The notes below the pieces were generated by a model. It saw nothing but the letters and a program-made list of their open reading frames with translations. It did not search any database and had not been told where the DNA came from. Shown here one piece after another: positions 8,721 through 59,663 of a DNA stretch of 64,000 nucleotides (the stretch's first letter is position 1; each line of letters starts with the position of its first letter). This DNA is from Escherichia phage JLBYU43. The stretch lies in the sequence record NC_105512.1, one strand, 5' to 3'. Position numbers and translations under genes: made by a program.

Positions 8721-9017
8721 ATGGAGAACGTTCAGATTATGACCGGACTCGGTTTGATCGATCGTTTTCTTGGTACAACAGATTTTACTGGAGGTGGTTT
8801 ATCTAGGGGTAATTCTGTTTTACGTTTTGTCGAAAAATATAAGCTCAAACATTGGTGTGTGCTGGATGATGCCGGTGCTATGATGTATCAGTATCCAACG
8901 GTTATAGTCAATGGTAGAACTGGGATAAATCTTCAAGATTTAAGAGCTGTTAGCTATATGTTAGAATTTAGTCCAGATCTTGAAATGTGTAAAGCCCTAC
9001 AGCAATTTAAGGTGTAA
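8721..9017 (+). CDS. HAD-like phosphatase, C-terminal part (same frame as 8502-8714)
   Basis: CVLDDAG resembles HAD motif IV; in-frame continuation six nt after TGA 8712-8714. Confidence 0.4.
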   Translation: MENVQIMTGLGLIDRFLGTTDFTGGGLSRGNSVLRFVEKYKLKHWCVLDDAGAMMYQYPTVIVNGRTGINLQDLRAVSYMLEFSPDLEMCKALQQFKV

Positions 9018-9019
9018 AT

Positions 9020-9448
9020 ATGTTTAATAATGTATTCTCTAAAGAAGCTAACCCAATTTTGGTTAACTTTTGGCGTACTCTCCCAGCTAGCCTGTATAAT
9101 GAGGCTATTAACTCTTTGAAAATATGGTGTGAGAATAACGAAATCTCCTTTGCTTTTAAAGATGATATTGATGAGGCCCCTTGTATTGGTTTAATTGTTC
9201 AGGTAGAGGAGGGTCTTGAAGAGATTGTCGGCTGGAAAGAGTTAGATGAAATGGGCTTAGTTTTTGCATTAAATTATAAGCTGTTTATGCCTGCTAAGCA
9301 TCGCCTCGTTGTTAACTATAAAACTAGTGAGTCTCCTGGTTTTCAGGTTAATGAACGTGAGGGCTGGTCATATTCGCCCGAGGAAGTAAATGAAGGGATT
9401 CAGAAACTTCGTCGTTTCGGGTATATGATCCCAGGTTTAACTGCTTAA
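9020..9448 (+). CDS. hypothetical acidic protein, paralog A (142 aa)
   Basis: shares W-x-EL-x-MGL ... PGL pattern with 9458-9853. Confidence 0.55.
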   Translation: MFNNVFSKEANPILVNFWRTLPASLYNEAINSLKIWCENNEISFAFKDDIDEAPCIGLIVQVEEGLEEIVGWKELDEMGLVFALNYKLFMPAKHRLVVNYKTSESPGFQVNEREGWSYSPEEVNEGIQKLRRFGYMIPGLTA

Positions 9449-9457
9449 GGAGGCAGA

Positions 9458-9853
9458 ATGGAACAAGTATTTTGGCGTCAGATAGATCCTAGTTTGGTAG
9501 AGCGTGCTGAGGGGCTCCTTGCACATTGGTTGGGGGTTGACAAGGTTAGTGTAACATTTCCGTTTACTTCTGTAACAGACCCTAGTGTAGGTGTATTTGT
9601 GGACGAAGATGAAGATGATGGTTGGGAAGCTGACTGGAATGAATTGTCCAGCATGGGCTTGATTGTTGCCATCAACTTCTCTATATTCCATCCACGTGGC
9701 TTAGCCATTACACGTGACCCCGAAACTGGTGAATCCCCTTATCTTTTGCAAGTAGAAGATGATATTTGGGAGTACACCGAAGATATTCTCGAAGAAGCTA
9801 AAGGTCAATTAAATCGCATTGGGATCTATGTTCCAGGCCTAAATGATGATTGA
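9458..9853 (+). CDS. hypothetical acidic protein, paralog B (131 aa)
   Basis: RBS GGAGG; paralog of 9020-9448. Confidence 0.6.
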   Translation: MEQVFWRQIDPSLVERAEGLLAHWLGVDKVSVTFPFTSVTDPSVGVFVDEDEDDGWEADWNELSSMGLIVAINFSIFHPRGLAITRDPETGESPYLLQVEDDIWEYTEDILEEAKGQLNRIGIYVPGLNDD

Positions 9854-9876
9854 TTTTCATTAGCCCAATCCTGATT

Positions 9877-9902
9877 ACCGAGTCATTTTGGCTCGGTTTT
9901 CT
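9877..9902 (+). terminator. Rho-independent terminator
   Basis: stem ACCGAG/CTCGGT then TTTTCTCTG. Confidence 0.5.
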
Positions 9903-9944
9903 CTGTGCTCAAAGACACTGATAGCACCTTCGTAAAAAATTTTG

Positions 9945-9973
9945 TTGCACGATGCTCAAAATCTTGGTATAAT
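9945..9973 (+). promoter_or_regulatory. promoter reading into a ~590 bp ORF-free region
   Basis: TTGCAC-17-TATAAT with TG immediately upstream; downstream ATTTATATTGAATTGAGAGAC box. Confidence 0.5.
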
Positions 9974-10566
9974 ATTTATATTGAATTGAGAGACATTAGT
10001 AAAAATTGATTTTGCTAATTTTTCTTAGTGAAGCTGACAATGGATTTACGGCGAGAGTGGTCGATGACCCGTAAATAGCTGCATAAGGTACGTTGCTAGA
10101 GCTTTATGAAAAAGTTTTTCTTGTTTACAATCCGCGATACGGAACAGTTAGGCTGCCCCATTAAGGGTTGTTTTAACTATTACTAGTGTTTATATTGCAT
10201 TAGTTAATCTTCAATTAAGTGATCTGTGTACCCTGAATTCGGAAAGGTAAATCCAAACCGTGCATATTTAGCTCGTTATATAGGCAGAGCTTTATATGGG
10301 GGTGCGAACGAAAAGAGCAGCGAATGGCGGCACGTACAGTAGTCACCTACCAATAGGATAGCGAGGACAAATAGAATCGGCTTAGCGGCCAATGACCTAG
10401 GTTCTATTCTGTATATGAGCGAAGAGAGCACAGCACTGAGATATGATAACTTATTCATATTGTTTGATGATAATTGATGTTTACGTAAATAGTAGTAATA
10501 GTTGTTCTATTCTTTCTGAATAGTCCTAAAGAAAAGATTTCGATTAATCAACACAGGAGTATTGTT
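9974..10566 (+). other. non-coding region: candidate structured RNA, long leader or replication origin
   Basis: no plausible ORF, local GC rise 10270-10440, inverted repeats ATTTACGG/CCGTAAAT and AATAGAA/TTCTATT. Confidence 0.3.
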
Positions 10567-13356
10567 GTGTTTTCTATCCTCCAAGGTCACGCCGGGTTTT
10601 CTCGTGATTTAGCAACAGGTATTTGGCGAGAAATCAAAGCGGAAGATTATACCTTTGCCAAACGATTCTCGAAAGAGCATCCAGAAGGTAAACCAGCTTC
10701 TATGCCCTTCAAATTTGATGTAATAGAAGAGCACGACCCACAAAGCCTTGCTGAAATGTTACCACTTATGAGACGTTTAACGTCTGACCCTCATATCGTT
10801 GTGGTACGAGGTCGATGTCTTGCACCTAAAAATAATGTGCGACGTAAGAAAGGTAACTTTAATGTATCCAACCCTAGCAATATTATTGCTATGGACGTGG
10901 ATGGTATCCTGGATACCGGTGGGTACGACAAGTTTAATCTTGTAGGTATGGCCCGTCACATTATTAAGATGTTGAATAGTATTAGTGAGGACATGTTTCC
11001 TCTTGATGCAGGGTTTATTGCTCATGCATCGTCTTCGGCTGGCCTAAAACCAGGTATCCGAATGCACTTAATGCTAGAATCTAACGTCAAGGTAACTCAA
11101 GGTCAGTTAAAGTTCTTATTTACGTCTATCAATGATAGTAGTAAGCAAAAATTCGGTTTTGATATTGCCGACTTAGCTTATTATTCATCTGTCCAGCTTC
11201 ACTATTTTGCCGACCCTTTATTTAGCGATGGTATTGTTGATCCGTTTAAAGCGGAGAGTAAGCCACGTCTGGTGTATGTTAAAGGTTCGAAAGTAAATTT
11301 GCCTAATAATCTGGTTGACTATGAAACAACTAGAGGGGAGTTTAAGGAAGAGTTTTATTCTTTACTTGATCAAATTAAAGGCAAAAAGATTGCTTCTGAT
11401 AAAGTAGAAGAAACCATCAGCGAATTGGAAGAAGCTGAGGATGGGGTGTACTTGCGTATTATCCCCAAACTATACCATAGAGCATTAGAGGATGGTGTTG
11501 ATTTCGCATGGCTAGAACGTGAGATTAAACCCGCTTTATCTGAATATATTGCAACTAAAGATAACAGTCGTAATATTCAAGATTACTTTAATAACGGTCG
11601 TAAGCAGGCTCTCAAAGCGTTTGTTAATAATTCTAAACGCGAGATTCCATTAAATCTGAAAGGTGTTCCTCTTAAGAAATTAGAAGTGGATTCTCCACCA
11701 GAAGTTCCATACCTGAAGATTAACATTGTGCCCCCAAAAGGGCATATAACATTTGTTAAGGCAAGTCTTGGTACTGGCAAAACTACGGCAGTAACTAAAT
11801 GGCTGGACGCAGGTGTTCTTCCTGGCAACTTTTTAGCAGTTACAAATACTAGAGCGCTGGTATCTTCAAACGCTAAGAAATTTAGCGCAGGACAATATGA
11901 TAAGTCTGTAGATATGCTCAACTTTAAACGTGGAGCTATTGATCGTATGTCCACAACTATTCACTCTTTGCATAAGTTCAAGAGTTTTATTGGTCAAATT
12001 GATGCAATCTTTATCGATGAATGTGATGCTGTAATGAATGACCTATTATTCGCCCCGGTTGTTAAACAGCGTCGTGAATGTATTCAAGTTCTACGTGACA
12101 TCCTCATGACAGCTAAAACTGTAATTCTATCAGATGGTGATATTAGTGCCGAAACTATTGAAGCATATGGTTCTCTAATTGATTTTGATAAACCAGTAGC
12201 ATTTTATAATCATCACCGTAAAATGCTGTCAAAAGCTCATGCTTATGAGTTCCCTGACGAATCCAGTATTTGGGTTGCACTTCAAACATCTCTAGAGATG
12301 GGTGAGAAGTCAATCCTAGTATCTGACTGTGGACCTGATGAATTAAATGAAAAGGGAATGGCATTACGTCGTAATACCGGTGCGTTAGTTAAAGAAATTC
12401 ACTCAAACTCTACGTCTGATGTAGATATCCGACGTATTCTGGATTATACAACTAATGAGCTAATTGATCAACAGATTGATTGTTTGTTATGTAGTCCATC
12501 TGTAACGAGTGGTGTTGACTTTAACTATTTTGATAACGTATTCGTAATCACTAGAACCTCAAACCAAGCGCCAAACATGCGTTTCCAAGCAATCAGGCGC
12601 GACCGTGGTGCTCAGAACATTTATTATTTTATTGATAAATCTACGAGTGGATTTTCTGCAGGTTCCGAGCAATATAATATTGACGAGGGTTGGATTGAGT
12701 TAGCCCAACAACTGTACGCACGTCGTCGTGAGCTGGAATCTAGAAACTATACCAGTACTTTGCGTTATTATCTTCTCGATCAAGGTGCAACTATTGATAT
12801 CTTCAGTGAAAGCTGGGGGACTATCGAAGGTGCAGGCAAAGAGTATACAGAAGAGCGAATCAAAGCCATTTTGTATTCAACTCCTGATTATTGTGCTCCA
12901 CGCCATGCAGATGCGTATGAAGCTAAACTACTTCTTGTTCGCTATTATCATCTTGAGTCTATTAAAGATGTAACAGTTGAGCATGTTGAGCAATATATCA
13001 AGGATAAACCTAATGATCGAGCTGCATTCTTCCATAAAATGCACGAGATGTTCTGGGAAGATATTAAGAAGTGTTCAAATGTCACTATCAAACCATTCAT
13101 AGAAGCTCTGAAAGGTAAGAAGAAAGATTTCTTCCTTAAAACAGGTCAGAGTGCTAACCCAAAATACGCCAGAATGTATCTTGGTATGATGGGTATTGGT
13201 AAGGATATGAACACGGAGAATATTGTAGACTGGTACAGAACCTATTGTAAAATCGAATGTATGCCAATCCCGTATAAGTTTATGACTGATGAGGAGAAAC
13301 ATATGCATGATGAAGCAATGGCAGAGCTAGGCGCTAGAAATGACAGTGAAGAATAA
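10567..13356 (+). CDS. large replication ATPase/helicase (929 aa), possible N-terminal primase-polymerase-like domain
   Basis: GTG start with RBS ACAGGAG; Walker A SLGTGKTT, Walker B IFIDECD; N-terminal IIAMDVDG and SSAG...HLML motifs. Confidence 0.55.
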   Translation: MFSILQGHAGFSRDLATGIWREIKAEDYTFAKRFSKEHPEGKPASMPFKFDVIEEHDPQSLAEMLPLMRRLTSDPHIVVVRGRCLAPKNNVRRKKGNFNVSNPSNIIAMDVDGILDTGGYDKFNLVGMARHIIKMLNSISEDMFPLDAGFIAHASSSAGLKPGIRMHLMLESNVKVTQGQLKFLFTSINDSSKQKFGFDIADLAYYSSVQLHYFADPLFSDGIVDPFKAESKPRLVYVKGSKVNLPNNLVDYETTRGEFKEEFYSLLDQIKGKKIASDKVEETISELEEAEDGVYLRIIPKLYHRALEDGVDFAWLEREIKPALSEYIATKDNSRNIQDYFNNGRKQALKAFVNNSKREIPLNLKGVPLKKLEVDSPPEVPYLKINIVPPKGHITFVKASLGTGKTTAVTKWLDAGVLPGNFLAVTNTRALVSSNAKKFSAGQYDKSVDMLNFKRGAIDRMSTTIHSLHKFKSFIGQIDAIFIDECDAVMNDLLFAPVVKQRRECIQVLRDILMTAKTVILSDGDISAETIEAYGSLIDFDKPVAFYNHHRKMLSKAHAYEFPDESSIWVALQTSLEMGEKSILVSDCGPDELNEKGMALRRNTGALVKEIHSNSTSDVDIRRILDYTTNELIDQQIDCLLCSPSVTSGVDFNYFDNVFVITRTSNQAPNMRFQAIRRDRGAQNIYYFIDKSTSGFSAGSEQYNIDEGWIELAQQLYARRRELESRNYTSTLRYYLLDQGATIDIFSESWGTIEGAGKEYTEERIKAILYSTPDYCAPRHADAYEAKLLLVRYYHLESIKDVTVEHVEQYIKDKPNDRAAFFHKMHEMFWEDIKKCSNVTIKPFIEALKGKKKDFFLKTGQSANPKYARMYLGMMGIGKDMNTENIVDWYRTYCKIECMPIPYKFMTDEEKHMHDEAMAELGARNDSEE

Positions 13357-14151: not shown

Positions 14152-14180
14152 TTGCTTTCAGGAAAAAATTTCTGTATAAT
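14152..14180 (+). promoter_or_regulatory. strong early promoter, near-identical to T5 PN25
   Basis: TTGCTT-17-TATAAT then AGATTCATAAATTTGAGAGAGGAGTT; matches remembered PN25 sequence. Confidence 0.85.
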
Positions 14181-14211
14181 AGATTCATAAATTTGAGAGA
14201 GGAGTTTAAAT

Positions 14212-26983: not shown

Positions 26984-26995
26984 ATGATGTATAAT
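26967..26995 (+). promoter_or_regulatory. promoter, copy 1
   Basis: TTGGCA-17-TATAAT then ATATACATAAATTTGAGAGAG. Confidence 0.5.
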
Positions 26996-27068
26996 ATATA
27001 CATAAATTTGAGAGAGAGAAAGTTTCGGATTGATAAGAAAGTCCGAAGCAGAAAAATAAAAATTTTAG

Positions 27069-57864: not shown

Positions 57865-59181
57865 TTATTTACCACGGGAAATAGAGTAAATTCCGTAGCG
57901 CAGCGCATCACAAAGGTGAGAGTTAGCATCATGACGTGGTTTTTCACGTGATAATTTTTCCTCACCTTCTTGGAAATCCCACTTATAGTTCTGCAATGCA
58001 TGGATTAGTGAGGAACATGAAGCATCTACAATAATCTTACCCTGTTGGAATAGTGCTTGTAAACATGCTAGACCGTCTAGGACAGACTTTTTAGCTGGAG
58101 CTGATGCAATTTCATGTTCATAGGCTAAGTCCTGGCGGAACTGAGCTGCGGCAGAGTCAACAAAAACACGATCAACTTTATAGCGATCTATGCAGTGCTG
58201 AATATAAGCAGCATGCTGAGCTGTAGTTTTCTCTGCCTGCTGGTACTCTTCTAGTACATAGTAAGTATCTGTATCATAATGATACTTGATAGTAAGAACT
58301 GCTGTAGGATCACGATAACCAACGTCAATACCAAGCAACGTTTCGAATGCTTCATCATCTTTAAAGAAGTGACGCATACCTTTAAGGTCTTTAACATGAT
58401 CAATAGCATTAAAGGTATCAAAGATCTGACCTTCGAATACAGAGAAGTCAGCCTCGTATTCTTGGCGGAAGTAGTTTTTACTAACAGTACGACGTGCTTC
58501 CTCAATATCATTCAGGTCAGCACGTGGATTATCACGATATGTACCATGAATAGATACCCAGTTAGGCAACGTATCATCAAACCCATAGGCATAAAATTCT
58601 TTAAACCAGTTACCGCCACGAGGGGTAGAGATAAATAGAGCCTTAGAATTAGGTTTATCTAGGGTAGGACGCAACTGAACCCTGAAGGCATCACCACCCA
58701 CATCAGAAATTGCCGCCTCGTCAAAGATGATAAAGTCATATGAACGTCCAACTGCGGAGTCAGCCTGAGCTGCAGAAGCTAGTTTAAACAGTGAGCCGTT
58801 TGCCAACTCAATTTCTTTATCTTTAGCATTCTCACGTTCAGTTTGTAGGCCGTACTTTTTAATAAGACCACGAATCTGAGACCACCCGATGTTGGCCAGT
58901 GAGTAGTTAGGGGCAACTACTAGCACCTTCACATTAGGTTCCAGCAATTTTAGGAACCCAAGGGTATACGCGATGAAGGATTTACCTACACGGCGTGATA
59001 CACACGCTGTTACAAAACGATGTCTAGGGTCCTCTAGAGCATTAATAATTGCTATTTGAGGACCATTAGGTGTAATACCTTCTTGTGCTAGTATTCCCGA
59101 AACAGGTAGACGAAAGAAACGTTTATCTATTCCGAAATCAATAACATCTACTGTGTTAACGTAGGGTCTTGATACTTCCAT
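57865..59181 (-). CDS. terminase large subunit (438 aa)
   Basis: Walker A VSRRVGKS, C-terminal nuclease fold. Confidence 0.9.
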   Translation of the reverse strand: MEVSRPYVNTVDVIDFGIDKRFFRLPVSGILAQEGITPNGPQIAIINALEDPRHRFVTACVSRRVGKSFIAYTLGFLKLLEPNVKVLVVAPNYSLANIGWSQIRGLIKKYGLQTERENAKDKEIELANGSLFKLASAAQADSAVGRSYDFIIFDEAAISDVGGDAFRVQLRPTLDKPNSKALFISTPRGGNWFKEFYAYGFDDTLPNWVSIHGTYRDNPRADLNDIEEARRTVSKNYFRQEYEADFSVFEGQIFDTFNAIDHVKDLKGMRHFFKDDEAFETLLGIDVGYRDPTAVLTIKYHYDTDTYYVLEEYQQAEKTTAQHAAYIQHCIDRYKVDRVFVDSAAAQFRQDLAYEHEIASAPAKKSVLDGLACLQALFQQGKIIVDASCSSLIHALQNYKWDFQEGEEKLSREKPRHDANSHLCDALRYGIYSISRGK

Positions 59182-59663
59182 TACTTCTTACCTCCCGTAG
59201 CTAGGGAAGTAATTAAGTCCATATAGTTTTGATCCCCAGCTCCAGCAATAATATTATTCTGGATGTTGGTCTGATTGGCTGGAGTACGGGCTGCTGCCTT
59301 CACTTTCTCCAATTCTACCATCATTTTCATCTCTTCCATCTTCATTTTATGTGCTTTCCAGAGAATATCCATAATATCTTGGTCAGAACCCATGCCGGTT
59401 TCTTCCAGTTCCTCCAGCTTACGCTTAATAACTTCATCCAGAACACCGAACAAACGGTCTCTGTTACGGAAACCACTCTCCATAAAAATATCATTTAAGT
59501 AGTTCTTAACTTCACTACGATTCATAATATCTCGGAAAGCAATTTCTGACATTCCAAGACTACGTGCGGCAGAAGGCACATCGCTGCCACACTGTAAATA
59601 AGCTTCAATCACATCCATCCCTTCAGGGGACATAAGATCTGGTACTAATACATCATTTGCCAT
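59181..59663 (-). CDS. putative terminase small subunit
   Basis: HTH-like [20 protein letters not shown]; immediately upstream of TerL. Confidence 0.45.

Follow-up and report, generated by a model that had tools for sequence, protein, structure and literature searches.

In the RNA-primed, R-loop origins of ColE1 (RNA II) and phage T4 (oriF and oriG), a dedicated promoter makes a non-coding transcript of several hundred nucleotides within the replication region, and for RNA II the fold of the transcript matters for function. In RSF1010, the ssiA and ssiB sites are isolated DNA hairpins of about 40 nt inside an iteron-type oriV, and are recognised by the AEP primase RepB'. Structured mRNA leaders and translational operators include those of T4 genes 32 and 43 and the rpoS leader, while the phi29 pRNA, of about 170 nt, is made from an early promoter and acts in packaging. 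GOLLD and ROOL are Rfam families of large (0.5-0.8 kb and above), modular RNAs from phages and bacteria, frequently adjacent to tRNA genes, for which the function is unknown. Although phage T5 has been a model phage for seventy years, its origin and initiation mechanism are still undefined (PMC3632103, PMC10055335). We analysed a 64,000-nt stretch of the T5-like Escherichia phage JLBYU43 (NC_105512.1; hereafter the window), in which about 590 nt without a conserved ORF lie in front of the gene for the replication helicase. T5 itself (NC_005859) has the same gap, with only 'terminator' and 'promoter' annotated.

A promoter-driven gap upstream of the T5-type helicase gene

The original prediction described a terminator, an early-type promoter, a stretch of about 590 bp without a credible ORF, a local GC rise and several inverted repeats, ending at the ribosome-binding site of a GTG-start helicase-like gene. 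Each of these elements is present, with small coordinate offsets, and the observation is thus confirmed. The Rho-independent terminator (9877-9902, + strand) ends the upstream operon of DUF7415 genes, and consists of a hairpin at 9877-9897 (9 pairs, 5 G-C) followed by TTTTCTCTG; it is annotated as a terminator at the same place in T5 and is conserved in the alignment of relatives. The T5-type early promoter (9933-9973, +) comprises an A/T tract, a -35 element TTGCAC (9945-9950), a 17-nt spacer, TG at 9965-9966 and a -10 element TATAAT (9968-9973). A simple promoter scan missed it, as TTGCAC matches TTGACA at only 3 of 6 positions. However, T5 annotates a promoter here, and a TTGCnn-17-TATAAT promoter sits at a constant distance from the gene in all T5-like, Klebsiella-like and Providencia-like loci (about 38 loci). 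The downstream box predicted to be shared with other early promoters was also found: TATAAT-N(8-18)-TTGAGAG occurs 3 times in the window (9968, 14175 and 26990), against 0.1 expected. GC content rises to 0.47-0.52 at 10250-10400, against 0.25-0.39 around it. Of the two inverted repeats, ATTTACGG (10044-10051) / CCGTAAAT (10069-10076) lies inside an optional insert, while AATAGAA (10371-10377) / TTCTATT (10402-10408) is the stem of the most conserved hairpin. The Shine-Dalgarno sequence AGGAG (10555-10559) precedes the GTG start codon at 10567. The region is conserved in 522 phage records, far beyond chance.

A conserved ORF emerging from alignment with related phages had been named beforehand as a refuting outcome, and none was found. 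The longest ORFs are 38 aa (+) and 60 aa (-). All small ORFs carry stops or frameshifts in close relatives (related loci L004 or L028/29) and show no codon-phase bias, and no ORF is shared by the two versions of the core described below, termed types A and B. A protein-coding gene or small peptide was therefore rejected. Several deposited genomes nevertheless place small 'hypothetical proteins' or N-terminally extended helicase genes over this region, annotations which the present analysis corrects. ARAGORN found no tRNA gene in the 64-kb window, and no tmRNA was found. Covariance-model searches with Rfam 15 (which includes GOLLD, ROOL, group I and II introns, 6S, tmRNA and riboswitches) of window positions 9000-11500 at E up to 10 gave five sub-threshold matches, the best scoring 21.6 bits against a gathering score of 56.4 and lying on the terminator; in ten related loci, searched at E up to 1, nothing was found in the gaps. 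A repeat search of 9854-10566 gave a single 18-nt pair at 83% identity and no repeat family, hence no iterons. A degenerate homing-endonuclease gene or mobile element was also rejected, as the free-standing HNH gene in phages K15 and MM-2 lies outside the RNA, upstream of its promoter and with a promoter of its own, and the optional 97-nt insert described below is single-copy and specific to this locus. Literature searches for a T5 transcript map or a described RNA at this locus found nothing in the papers searched.

The downstream gene (10567-13356, +) encodes a 929-aa protein corresponding to the T5 'D2' bipolar helicase (T5.108, 'replication origin binding'), a proposed initiator (PMC3632103). 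The SF2 UL9-like core spans approximately residues 389-708, with a PF02399 match carrying Walker A and B motifs at residues 389-533 (E 1.5e-7, 30.4 bits against a cut-off of 20). The protein also matches PHROG 3712 and, below its cut-off, NCBIfam CyRepA1. Sequence searches of the N-terminus against PDB and Pfam gave nothing, a homologue search with the truncated protein returned only 2 fragments, and single-sequence structure prediction of this region was uninformative (pLDDT 39). An AF2 model (pLDDT 89) gave AEP fold hits, including RepB' (3h20), suggesting an unrecognised primase-polymerase-like domain at approximately residues 1-250. Residues D110, D112, S155, S157, H167 and D202 are invariant in 58 sequences down to 23% identity, consistent with a conserved acidic DxD motif, a histidine motif and a third acidic residue, although the assignment of these residues to catalytic motifs is our inference.

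Covariation supports a large structured RNA on the + strand

In the type A alignment of 19 T5-type sequences, 138 consensus pairs are 99.7% paired. Thirteen pairs changed on both sides, against 4.1±1.4 in shuffles (0 of 500) and 0-1 when partners are slid; type B has 8 such pairs. The signal is asymmetric between the strands: 19 of the 138 consensus pairs are G.U, which would be A.C on the other strand, and the folding z-score is -2.5 on the + strand against -1.0 on the - strand. The predicted structured non-coding RNA occupies 9980-10566 (+), with the 5' end inferred at about 7 nt after the -10 box. The 3' end is not defined, and transcription probably reads into the helicase gene. The RNA is about 490 nt in T5 and about 590 nt here because of an optional 97-nt expansion (10019-10115) bounded by the direct repeat TTTTTCTT, which adds two hairpins, including ATTTACGG/CCGTAAAT. 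The expansion is absent from T5 but present in both type A and type B genomes, and occurs in 49 phage records, one copy each, always at this locus. The RNA core is 98.9% identical between the window and T5, against 75.1% for the upstream gene.

The predicted fold begins with a 5'-terminal hairpin P1 (9985-10029), in which UUGAGAGA... pairs with ...UUUUUCUU in both MFE and centroid structures; a 5'-terminal hairpin of different sequence is present in every lineage folded. Hairpin H2 (10127-10171) carries the motif GAACAGUUAGGCUGC, and CAGUUAGGC is also present in the Klebsiella version and that of related locus L083. A long-range helix H3/H4 of about 35 bp, detected as an inverted repeat and showing one-sided and two-sided changes, pairs 10174-10214 with 10464-10504 and closes a multi-branched core of about 290 nt. 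A comparably long-range closing helix of different sequence is predicted in the type B consensus fold. Within the core lies a three-way junction (10334-10414), formed by the closing helix H13, hairpin H14 (C-AAUA-G loop) and the island hairpin H15/H16. The latter contains the invariant mini-hairpin GGCU[UAGC]GGCC (10379-10390), with the UAGC loop (10383-10386) closed by a U.G pair. The island sequence CTTAGCGG is invariant in all enterobacterial lineages, with 2-3 copies, each in a hairpin loop, in the Aeromonas phage RNAs. Hairpin H17 (10440-10461; AUAUGA/UCAUAU) has two compensatory pairs within type A, and its position is occupied in type B by a hairpin of different sequence (GGGG or GUGG stem) with a U-A to G-C change. 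Hairpin H18 (10507-10523; CUAUUC/GAAUAG) belongs to an invariant 3' block shared by types A and B, and a related GUUCUAUyC...GAUAG occurs in Klebsiella phages.

Plain MAFFT alignments could not keep helices in register across lineages, and iterated covariance models (R1, R2 and R3) were used instead. These hit exactly one site per locus, on the + strand and at the expected place, in types A and B and in Klebsiella, Erwinia, Providencia and Pectobacterium phages and locus L074. The junction was thereby found at the same site in 7 or more lineages, and is the only strong R3 hit in the window (61.7 bits, E 6e-12). The cross-lineage junction alignment is 92.6% paired, against 71.4% in shuffles; 15 of 23 pairs changed on both sides, against 9.4±1.5 in shuffles (0 of 500) and 5-9 when partners are slid, with a covariation score of 0.615 against 0.20. 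Twelve representatives show different but complementary stems. Gene-free gaps of 430-1590 bp lie upstream of the helicase homologue in every lineage examined, and Vibrio and Aeromonas relatives have their own promoter-driven structured RNAs at this position. The Aeromonas RNA, up to about 1.3 kb, has 409 pairs, 92 of them covarying (9-12 when partners are slid), an energy z-score of about -15, and a consensus energy of -356 on the + strand against -278 on the reverse complement. The Vibrio group has 28 covarying pairs (4-6 when slid) and an energy of -105, against -27±6 in shuffles. Models R1-R3 failed to link the Vibrio and Aeromonas RNAs to the T5 junction; one 20-bit hit in Vibrio locus L056 (989-1058) is AT-rich, lacks the island and is considered doubtful.

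Possible roles of the predicted RNA

The original prediction offered a structured leader, a standalone small RNA, or an origin with its initiator alongside, and this interpretation is only partly supported. A structured RNA is strongly supported by compensatory changes, strand asymmetry and a conserved promoter, but it is large rather than small. In T5-like phages no terminator separates it from the helicase gene, so there it would physically be the leader of that mRNA. The origin reading was not confirmed: besides the lack of iterons, long-range compensatory pairing cannot be explained by double-stranded DNA, and a published strand bias, which suggests replication mainly from one end, argues against a dominant central bidirectional origin (PMC10055335). 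An RNA-dependent origin function next to the initiator gene remains possible, and is the mechanism we favour.

We consider the analysis to show that the gap is the template of a large structured non-coding RNA on the + strand, which starts at a strong early promoter directly after a terminator and runs without a terminator into the helicase gene. The arrangement of promoter, predicted RNA and helicase gene is kept across the Demerecviridae lineages examined, while the RNA sequence turns over almost completely and its size ranges from about 320 nt to about 1.3 kb. The function, by contrast, is inferred, as are transcript ends, any binding by the protein and any initiation at this site. Most likely the RNA acts in cis with this initiator, in origin activation, initiator recruitment or control of its synthesis. 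In the favoured mechanism, the RNA would work in cis with the protein encoded next to it, a predicted AEP-like primase domain fused to a UL9-like helicase and related to plasmid and viral initiators. Early transcription would produce a folded RNA at the initiator's own locus, and conserved hairpins such as the UAGC hairpin would be bound by the initiator or a partner. This would recruit or load the initiator, or provide a primer or R-loop, so that the locus serves as an RNA-dependent replication start site. In line with a link to the initiator, the A or B core version tracks the helicase variant. We place the explanation as a whole at roughly 55%, and the favoured mechanism itself at 35-40%. 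A more far-reaching and doubtful possibility is that Demerecviridae share a previously unrecognised class of very large structured RNAs (0.3-1.3 kb) that is an obligatory partner of their primase-helicase initiator. In this view the RNA, through hairpins such as Y-U[UAGC]G-G, would recruit or load the initiator or prime DNA synthesis at its own locus. This would be an RNA-defined replication origin of a kind not described for tailed phages, and would finally locate a T5 origin.

The next most likely reading, which remains tentative, is a purely regulatory 5' leader that sets the stability or translation of the helicase mRNA, for example through feedback by the protein or another early factor binding the leader, with no role in initiation; it shares with the favoured mechanism the structured RNA itself. 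No terminator lies between the RNA and the gene in T5-like, Klebsiella and Providencia phages (nor in the window, locus L045 or locus L048), and the RNA is always immediately upstream of the same gene. GTG or TTG start codons and a partly paired Shine-Dalgarno sequence in many lineages suggest restrained translation, and a predicted helix pairs UUCUUGU (10118-10124) with ACAGGAG (10553-10559) over the Shine-Dalgarno sequence. However, this helix shows no change on both sides, with only one pair varying, on one side. Simple masking of the Shine-Dalgarno sequence was tested and not supported, as its pairing probability is about the same with the full RNA as with a 45-nt leader in most of 12 lineages, and the partners are mostly local. 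Furthermore, L045 has a perfect second promoter about 40 nt before the gene, and Aeromonas phage TS3 has a promoter-like site about 200 nt before it, so in L045, and probably in TS3, the gene does not need the long leader. Sizes of 0.3-1.3 kb with many domains are also far more than known translational operators need.

A standalone trans-acting RNA, such as a GOLLD- or ROOL-like scaffold or an anti-defence decoy whose position is merely historical, appears unlikely. The strong promoter, the 5' stabilising hairpin, the separate promoters in L045 and TS3, and a hairpin followed by a T-run before the gene in locus L015 (2175-2230) are in its favour, as is the large, modular organisation with expansion segments, which resembles other large bacterial and phage RNAs of unknown function. 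However, adjacency to, and the same orientation as, the helicase gene is kept from T5 to Aeromonas phages (26% protein identity), while the neighbouring genes and even the direction of nrdD change. The lack of any Rfam match in the window region and ten related loci, the lack of tRNA genes in the window, and the tracking of core version with helicase variant, also argue against this reading. Less likely still, the fold could be adopted by single-stranded DNA: when the locus is unwound, or an R-loop forms, the displaced + strand would fold into hairpins that act as single-strand initiation signals for the AEP-like domain, as ssiA and ssiB do for RepB'. Covariation cannot tell RNA from same-sense DNA, the strand displaced in an R-loop made from this promoter would be the + strand, and the conserved hairpin is about 40 nt, like ssi sites. 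However, about 14% of consensus pairs are G.U, typical of RNA and poorly tolerated as G.T in DNA, helices span 300-1260 nt in multi-branched domains whereas known ssi elements are single hairpins, and a strong conserved promoter sits exactly at the 5' end of the fold in every lineage. Finally, a classical double-stranded origin or a functionless gene or mobile-element remnant is very unlikely, despite the adjacent putative initiator gene, an AT-rich stretch at 10450-10549 (GC 0.25, comprising the 3' strand of H3/H4 plus H18) and the HNH gene inserted nearby in some relatives, given the lack of iterons and conserved ORFs, the covariation and strand asymmetry, and a conservation exceeding that of the flanking coding sequence.

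Comparison with described RNAs and origins

The T5 locus would add a new large structured RNA family from a well-studied, genetically tractable system, which is rare and is attractive for structural work of the kind recently done on other large RNAs. It also provides a testable candidate for how the T5 primase-helicase is directed or controlled. As T5 early promoters are widely used tools, a strong promoter followed by a natural stabilising 5' hairpin may have practical use as well. In common with phi29 pRNA, the predicted RNA is phage-encoded, structured and placed behind an early promoter, and pRNA serves as a component of a phage DNA-handling machine; it is, however, unrelated in sequence, and no protein partner has been shown for the T5-family RNA. 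As for the T4 operators and the rpoS leader, the RNA would be located in the 5' untranslated part of the mRNA of a replication protein, and autoregulation by the encoded nucleic-acid-binding protein would be possible, although it is ten-fold or more larger than phage operators. As with the RSF1010 ssi sites, a conserved hairpin of about 40 nt lies next to a replication protein, here with a predicted AEP-type primase fold, and would offer a sequence- and structure-specific start site, but in the T5 family the hairpin is one element of a 0.5-1.3 kb fold with G.U-rich helices that begins at a promoter. GOLLD and ROOL share the size class, phage origin, many covariation-supported helices and modularity with variable segments, but no covariance-model match was found in the window or in 10 related loci, and the T5-family RNA differs in its fixed synteny with a primase-helicase gene and its Gammaproteobacterial hosts. 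With ColE1 RNA II and the T4 oriF/oriG transcripts, the locus shares a promoter, conserved here, directing transcription into the candidate region; T5 also encodes a UvsW-like helicase, D10 (PMC12746101). No persistent hybrid, RNase H site or DNA start has been shown here, and there is no sequence or Rfam relationship. The T5-family RNA is larger, multi-branched and has much deeper covariation, and it sits upstream of, and is probably co-transcribed with, the initiator gene.

The gap upstream of the T5 helicase gene and its variation in T5-like phages

The region matched 442-522 phage records at 80-99% identity, all of them T5-like (Tequintavirus, Epseptimavirus and relatives, family Demerecviridae). 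In T5 itself (NC_005859) the same gap lies at 58,928-59,544, between T5.107 and T5.108, and carries only two annotated features, a 'terminator' and a 'promoter'. The gene downstream (window 10567-13356, GTG start, 929 aa) matches Pfam PF02399 at residues 389-533, and by its motif positions corresponds to the biochemically characterised T5 'D2' bipolar helicase, proposed by its authors as a replication initiator (PMC3632103). Naming of this gene is inconsistent: the PF02399 protein is 'D2' in PMC3632103 and 'replication origin binding' (T5.108) in NC_005859, where 'D2' labels the short T5.111, while in phage DT571/2 (KM979355) it is 'repA / D1'.

To verify the original prediction of a promoter-driven region devoid of ORFs, each of its elements was examined, and all were found to be real. 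The terminator hairpin is located at 9877-9897 and is followed by a T-rich tail. The promoter, TTGCAC-17-TATAAT, lies at 9945-9973 and has an extended -10 TG and an upstream A/T tract. The downstream box TTGAGAG is shared with two other early promoters in the window, at 14175-14199 and 26990-27014 (3 matches against 0.1 expected). The first of these corresponds in position to the promoter annotated as P-N25 in T5 NC_005859; in P-N25 the GAGAG run continues into the ribosome-binding site, whereas at 9980 it is sequestered in the predicted 5' hairpin of the RNA. GC content rises to 0.47-0.52 at 10250-10400, both predicted inverted repeats are present, and AGGAG is found at 10555-10559, before the GTG. 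The longest ORFs in the gap are 38 aa (+) and 60 aa (-). In close relatives these carry stop codons or frameshifts, and variable sites show no codon periodicity. Several deposited annotations nevertheless cover the RNA with an N-terminally extended helicase CDS or with 30-55-aa 'hypothetical proteins' (Salmonella phage Spc35, NC_015269, locus L007 1008-1205; protein P0022, 964 aa; Escherichia phage MM-2, locus L009 657-809 and 906-1022; and locus L014 1721-2345). Given the covariation and the decay of ORFs in relatives, these are probably annotation artefacts.

An alignment of the gap from ten T5-like genomes revealed a mosaic. A conserved terminator and promoter are followed by an invariant ~45 nt after the -10 box, an optional 97-nt insert bounded by the direct repeat TTTTTCTT (window 10019-10115), an invariant ~90 nt, a ~300-nt core that exists in two almost unalignable versions, type A (the window and T5) and type B, and finally an invariant ~75-nt 3' block up to the RBS. 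The two core versions share an island, GGCTTAGCGGCC, flanked by stems that differ in sequence but stay complementary. The 97-nt insert was found in 49 of the roughly 500 matching phage records, once in each, always at this locus and in both core types. It is an expansion segment as opposed to a dispersed mobile element, and looks to have been gained or lost by slippage between the repeats. In two genomes, Salmonella phage Kenya-K15 (locus L008 740-1192) and MM-2 (L009 117-569), a free-standing 150-aa HNH endonuclease gene with its own promoter is inserted between the terminator and the RNA promoter, at a point corresponding to window ~9903-9932, and therefore lies outside the RNA. The -35 region and spacer of the RNA promoter are replaced in these genomes, but the transcribed part is intact.

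Compensatory changes and strand asymmetry support a folded RNA

For 19 distinct type A sequences, RNAalifold predicts 138 pairs in 18 helices. Of all alignment cells at these pairs, 99.7% are standard pairs, compared with 34-51% when partners are slid. Thirteen pairs changed on both sides, against 4.1±1.4 in shuffles (0 of 500) and 0-1 when slid, and the one-sided changes are G-C/G.U/A-U transitions. Nineteen of the 138 consensus pairs are G.U, which would be A.C mismatches on the opposite strand, so the + strand is the folded one. The single-sequence folding energy agrees, with z = -2.5 for the + strand and -1.0 for the - strand. Type B gives the same topology, with 8 pairs changed on both sides.

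In window coordinates, the predicted fold begins with the 5' hairpin P1 (9985-10029), followed by hairpin H2 (10127-10171). A ~35-bp long-range helix, H3/H4, pairs 10174-10214 with 10464-10504 and was also found independently as an 18-nt inverted repeat. It is accompanied by a multi-branched core and a three-way junction at 10334-10414, which is made of closing helix H13, hairpin H14 and island hairpin H15/H16, with the UAGC loop at 10383-10386. Hairpins H17 (10440-10461) and H18 (10507-10523) follow. The RNA core is 98.9% identical between the window and T5, compared with 96.8% for the helicase gene and only 75.1% for the upstream gene. The latter is the second of two paralogues upstream of the terminator (window 9020-9448 and 9458-9853), both of which carry DUF7415 (PF24187), and the contrast with the adjacent RNA indicates a recombination boundary at the terminator.

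Structured gaps in other Demerecviridae lineages

A gene-free gap lies upstream of the helicase homologue in every lineage examined: 598 bp in Klebsiella phages, 711 bp in Providencia, 820 bp in the loci designated L045/46, 590 bp in Pectobacterium My1, 627 bp in Erwinia KEY, 431 bp in the metagenomic phage locus L083, about 700-1100 bp in Vibrio phages and 1590 bp in Aeromonas TS3. In the T5-like, Klebsiella-like and Providencia-like loci scanned, a TTGCnn-17-TATAAT promoter sits 516-528 nt before the start codon, plus 97 with the insert and about 645 in Providencia. My1, KEY and L083 have promoter-like matches at other distances. The island lies 304-351 nt from the predicted 5' end in every lineage without the insert, and 401-405 nt from it where the insert is present. 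A manual comparison of 12 representatives shows H13, H15 and H16 paired in each, with different sequences in each lineage. In the case of H15, the stems include AAAUAGAAUC/GGUUCUAUU, GCAAAUCU/GGAUUUGU, CCACA/UGUGG, UGUGGU/ACCACG, GGUAGU/ACUACU, AUACGG/UCGUAU, CACCU/AGGUG and CCACG/CGUGG.

As MAFFT could not align these regions in register, covariance models were iterated. The first model (R1), built from type A only, found the junction in type B and in the Klebsiella loci L010 and L042, corresponding to 12 loci with one + strand hit each and no false positive at E ≤ 0.1. A second model (R2), built from those hits, found Erwinia KEY (40 bits, E 1e-7), locus L074 (E 1e-4), locus L044 and Providencia, all ahead of any spurious hit. 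On the resulting alignment of 15 sequences from 7 lineages, 92.6% of cells pair, compared with 71.4% in shuffles and 34-52% when slid. Fifteen of 23 pairs changed on both sides (9.4±1.5 in shuffles; 0 of 500), with a covariation score of 0.615 against 0.20. This alignment is fitted to the model, which favours the structure, but the margin is large. A third model (R3) gives a single strong hit in the window (10334-10414, 61.7 bits), and recovers locus L082, My1 and, weakly, L045 at the right sites. The junction is dispensable in at least one lineage: L083 (1680-2000; helicase 62% identical) is a ~320-nt version that keeps the terminator, promoter, 5' hairpin, the CAGUUAGGC motif and the 3' GAAUAGUC motif, but has no three-way junction or UAGC hairpin.

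The models do not reach the Vibrio or Aeromonas phages, but those gaps are structured in their own right, and their RNAs may be either homologous or analogous to that of T5. A single 20-bit R3 hit (E about 0.07) on the + strand of the Vibrio phage locus L056 (989-1058), about 1.1 kb upstream of the helicase homologue, is AT-rich and lacks the UAGC island; it could be a remote homologue of the junction or a chance match. In three Aeromonas-type loci (L015 975-2235, L065 615-1934 and L079 615-1934; 64% identity between the two clades), the consensus fold has 409 predicted pairs at -356.5 kcal/mol, whereas column shuffles give -196.7±10.2 and the reverse complement -277.6. Ninety-two pairs changed on both sides, against 9-12 when slid and at most 46 in shuffles, and helices span up to 1260 nt. 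These RNAs start at a conserved promoter and contain two or three copies of the Y-U[UAGC]G-G motif, each predicted in or beside a hairpin loop. At about 1.3 kb, this would be among the largest structured non-coding RNAs reported in a phage, if confirmed. A Vibrio group shows a TTGACA-17-TAAAAT promoter, a 5' hairpin and 28 pairs changed on both sides (4-6 when slid), with an energy of -105 against -27±6.

Possible function and the neighbouring protein

Rfam 15 yielded no known family for the window at E up to 10, or for ten related loci at E up to 1, and there are no tRNA genes in the window. Literature searches found no description of an RNA or a mapped origin at this locus. The original observation is confirmed. 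Its interpretation, as an ncRNA or a replication origin, is partly right: on present evidence the gap specifies an RNA, and one that is large and elaborately structured, representing an undescribed RNA family in a classic model phage; the function of this RNA is now directly testable.

What the analysis establishes is a conserved, promoter-driven, + strand fold that is syntenic with the helicase gene across the family; everything beyond that, including any action on the initiator or on replication, we infer. Five observations point to a functional link with the initiator rather than an unrelated RNA. Adjacency and orientation are kept from T5 to Aeromonas phages while the neighbouring genes change. 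The A or B core version tracks the helicase variant, with type A accompanied by 92-100% N-terminal identity to the window and type B by 87-88%, although linkage alone could produce this. A pure leader role is weakened by the second perfect promoter directly before the gene in L045, and also by a promoter-like site, plus a hairpin with a T-run, before the gene in TS3. Finally, SD pairing does not depend on the long RNA. We favour, at about 35-40%, an RNA that acts in cis at the initiator's own locus, where it would recruit or load the initiator, prime synthesis, or form an R-loop. Older electron microscopy, cited in PMC3632103, is reported to have shown multiple internal origins. A regulatory leader, for example with autoregulation, is a possible alternative and only slightly less likely. 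A trans-acting RNA is more doubtful, and a same-sense ssDNA fold acting as a single-strand initiation signal is unlikely. A classical duplex origin or junk sequence is the least likely of these readings.

The helicase core of the neighbouring protein matches PHROG 3712 and, below the curated cut-off, the CyRepA1 plasmid replication protein family (E 6.5e-35). The first ~380 residues have no Pfam or PDB sequence match. However, using a 58-sequence alignment, the AlphaFold model reaches pLDDT 89, and the unannotated N-terminal domain (residues 1-388, window 10567-11730) as modelled appears to resemble archaeo-eukaryotic primase-polymerases. D110, D112, S155, S157, H167 and D202 are invariant down to 23% identity. 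While the published characterisation treated the protein as a helicase only, we therefore regard it as a probable primase-like domain fused to a UL9-like helicase, an architecture typical of viral and plasmid initiators.
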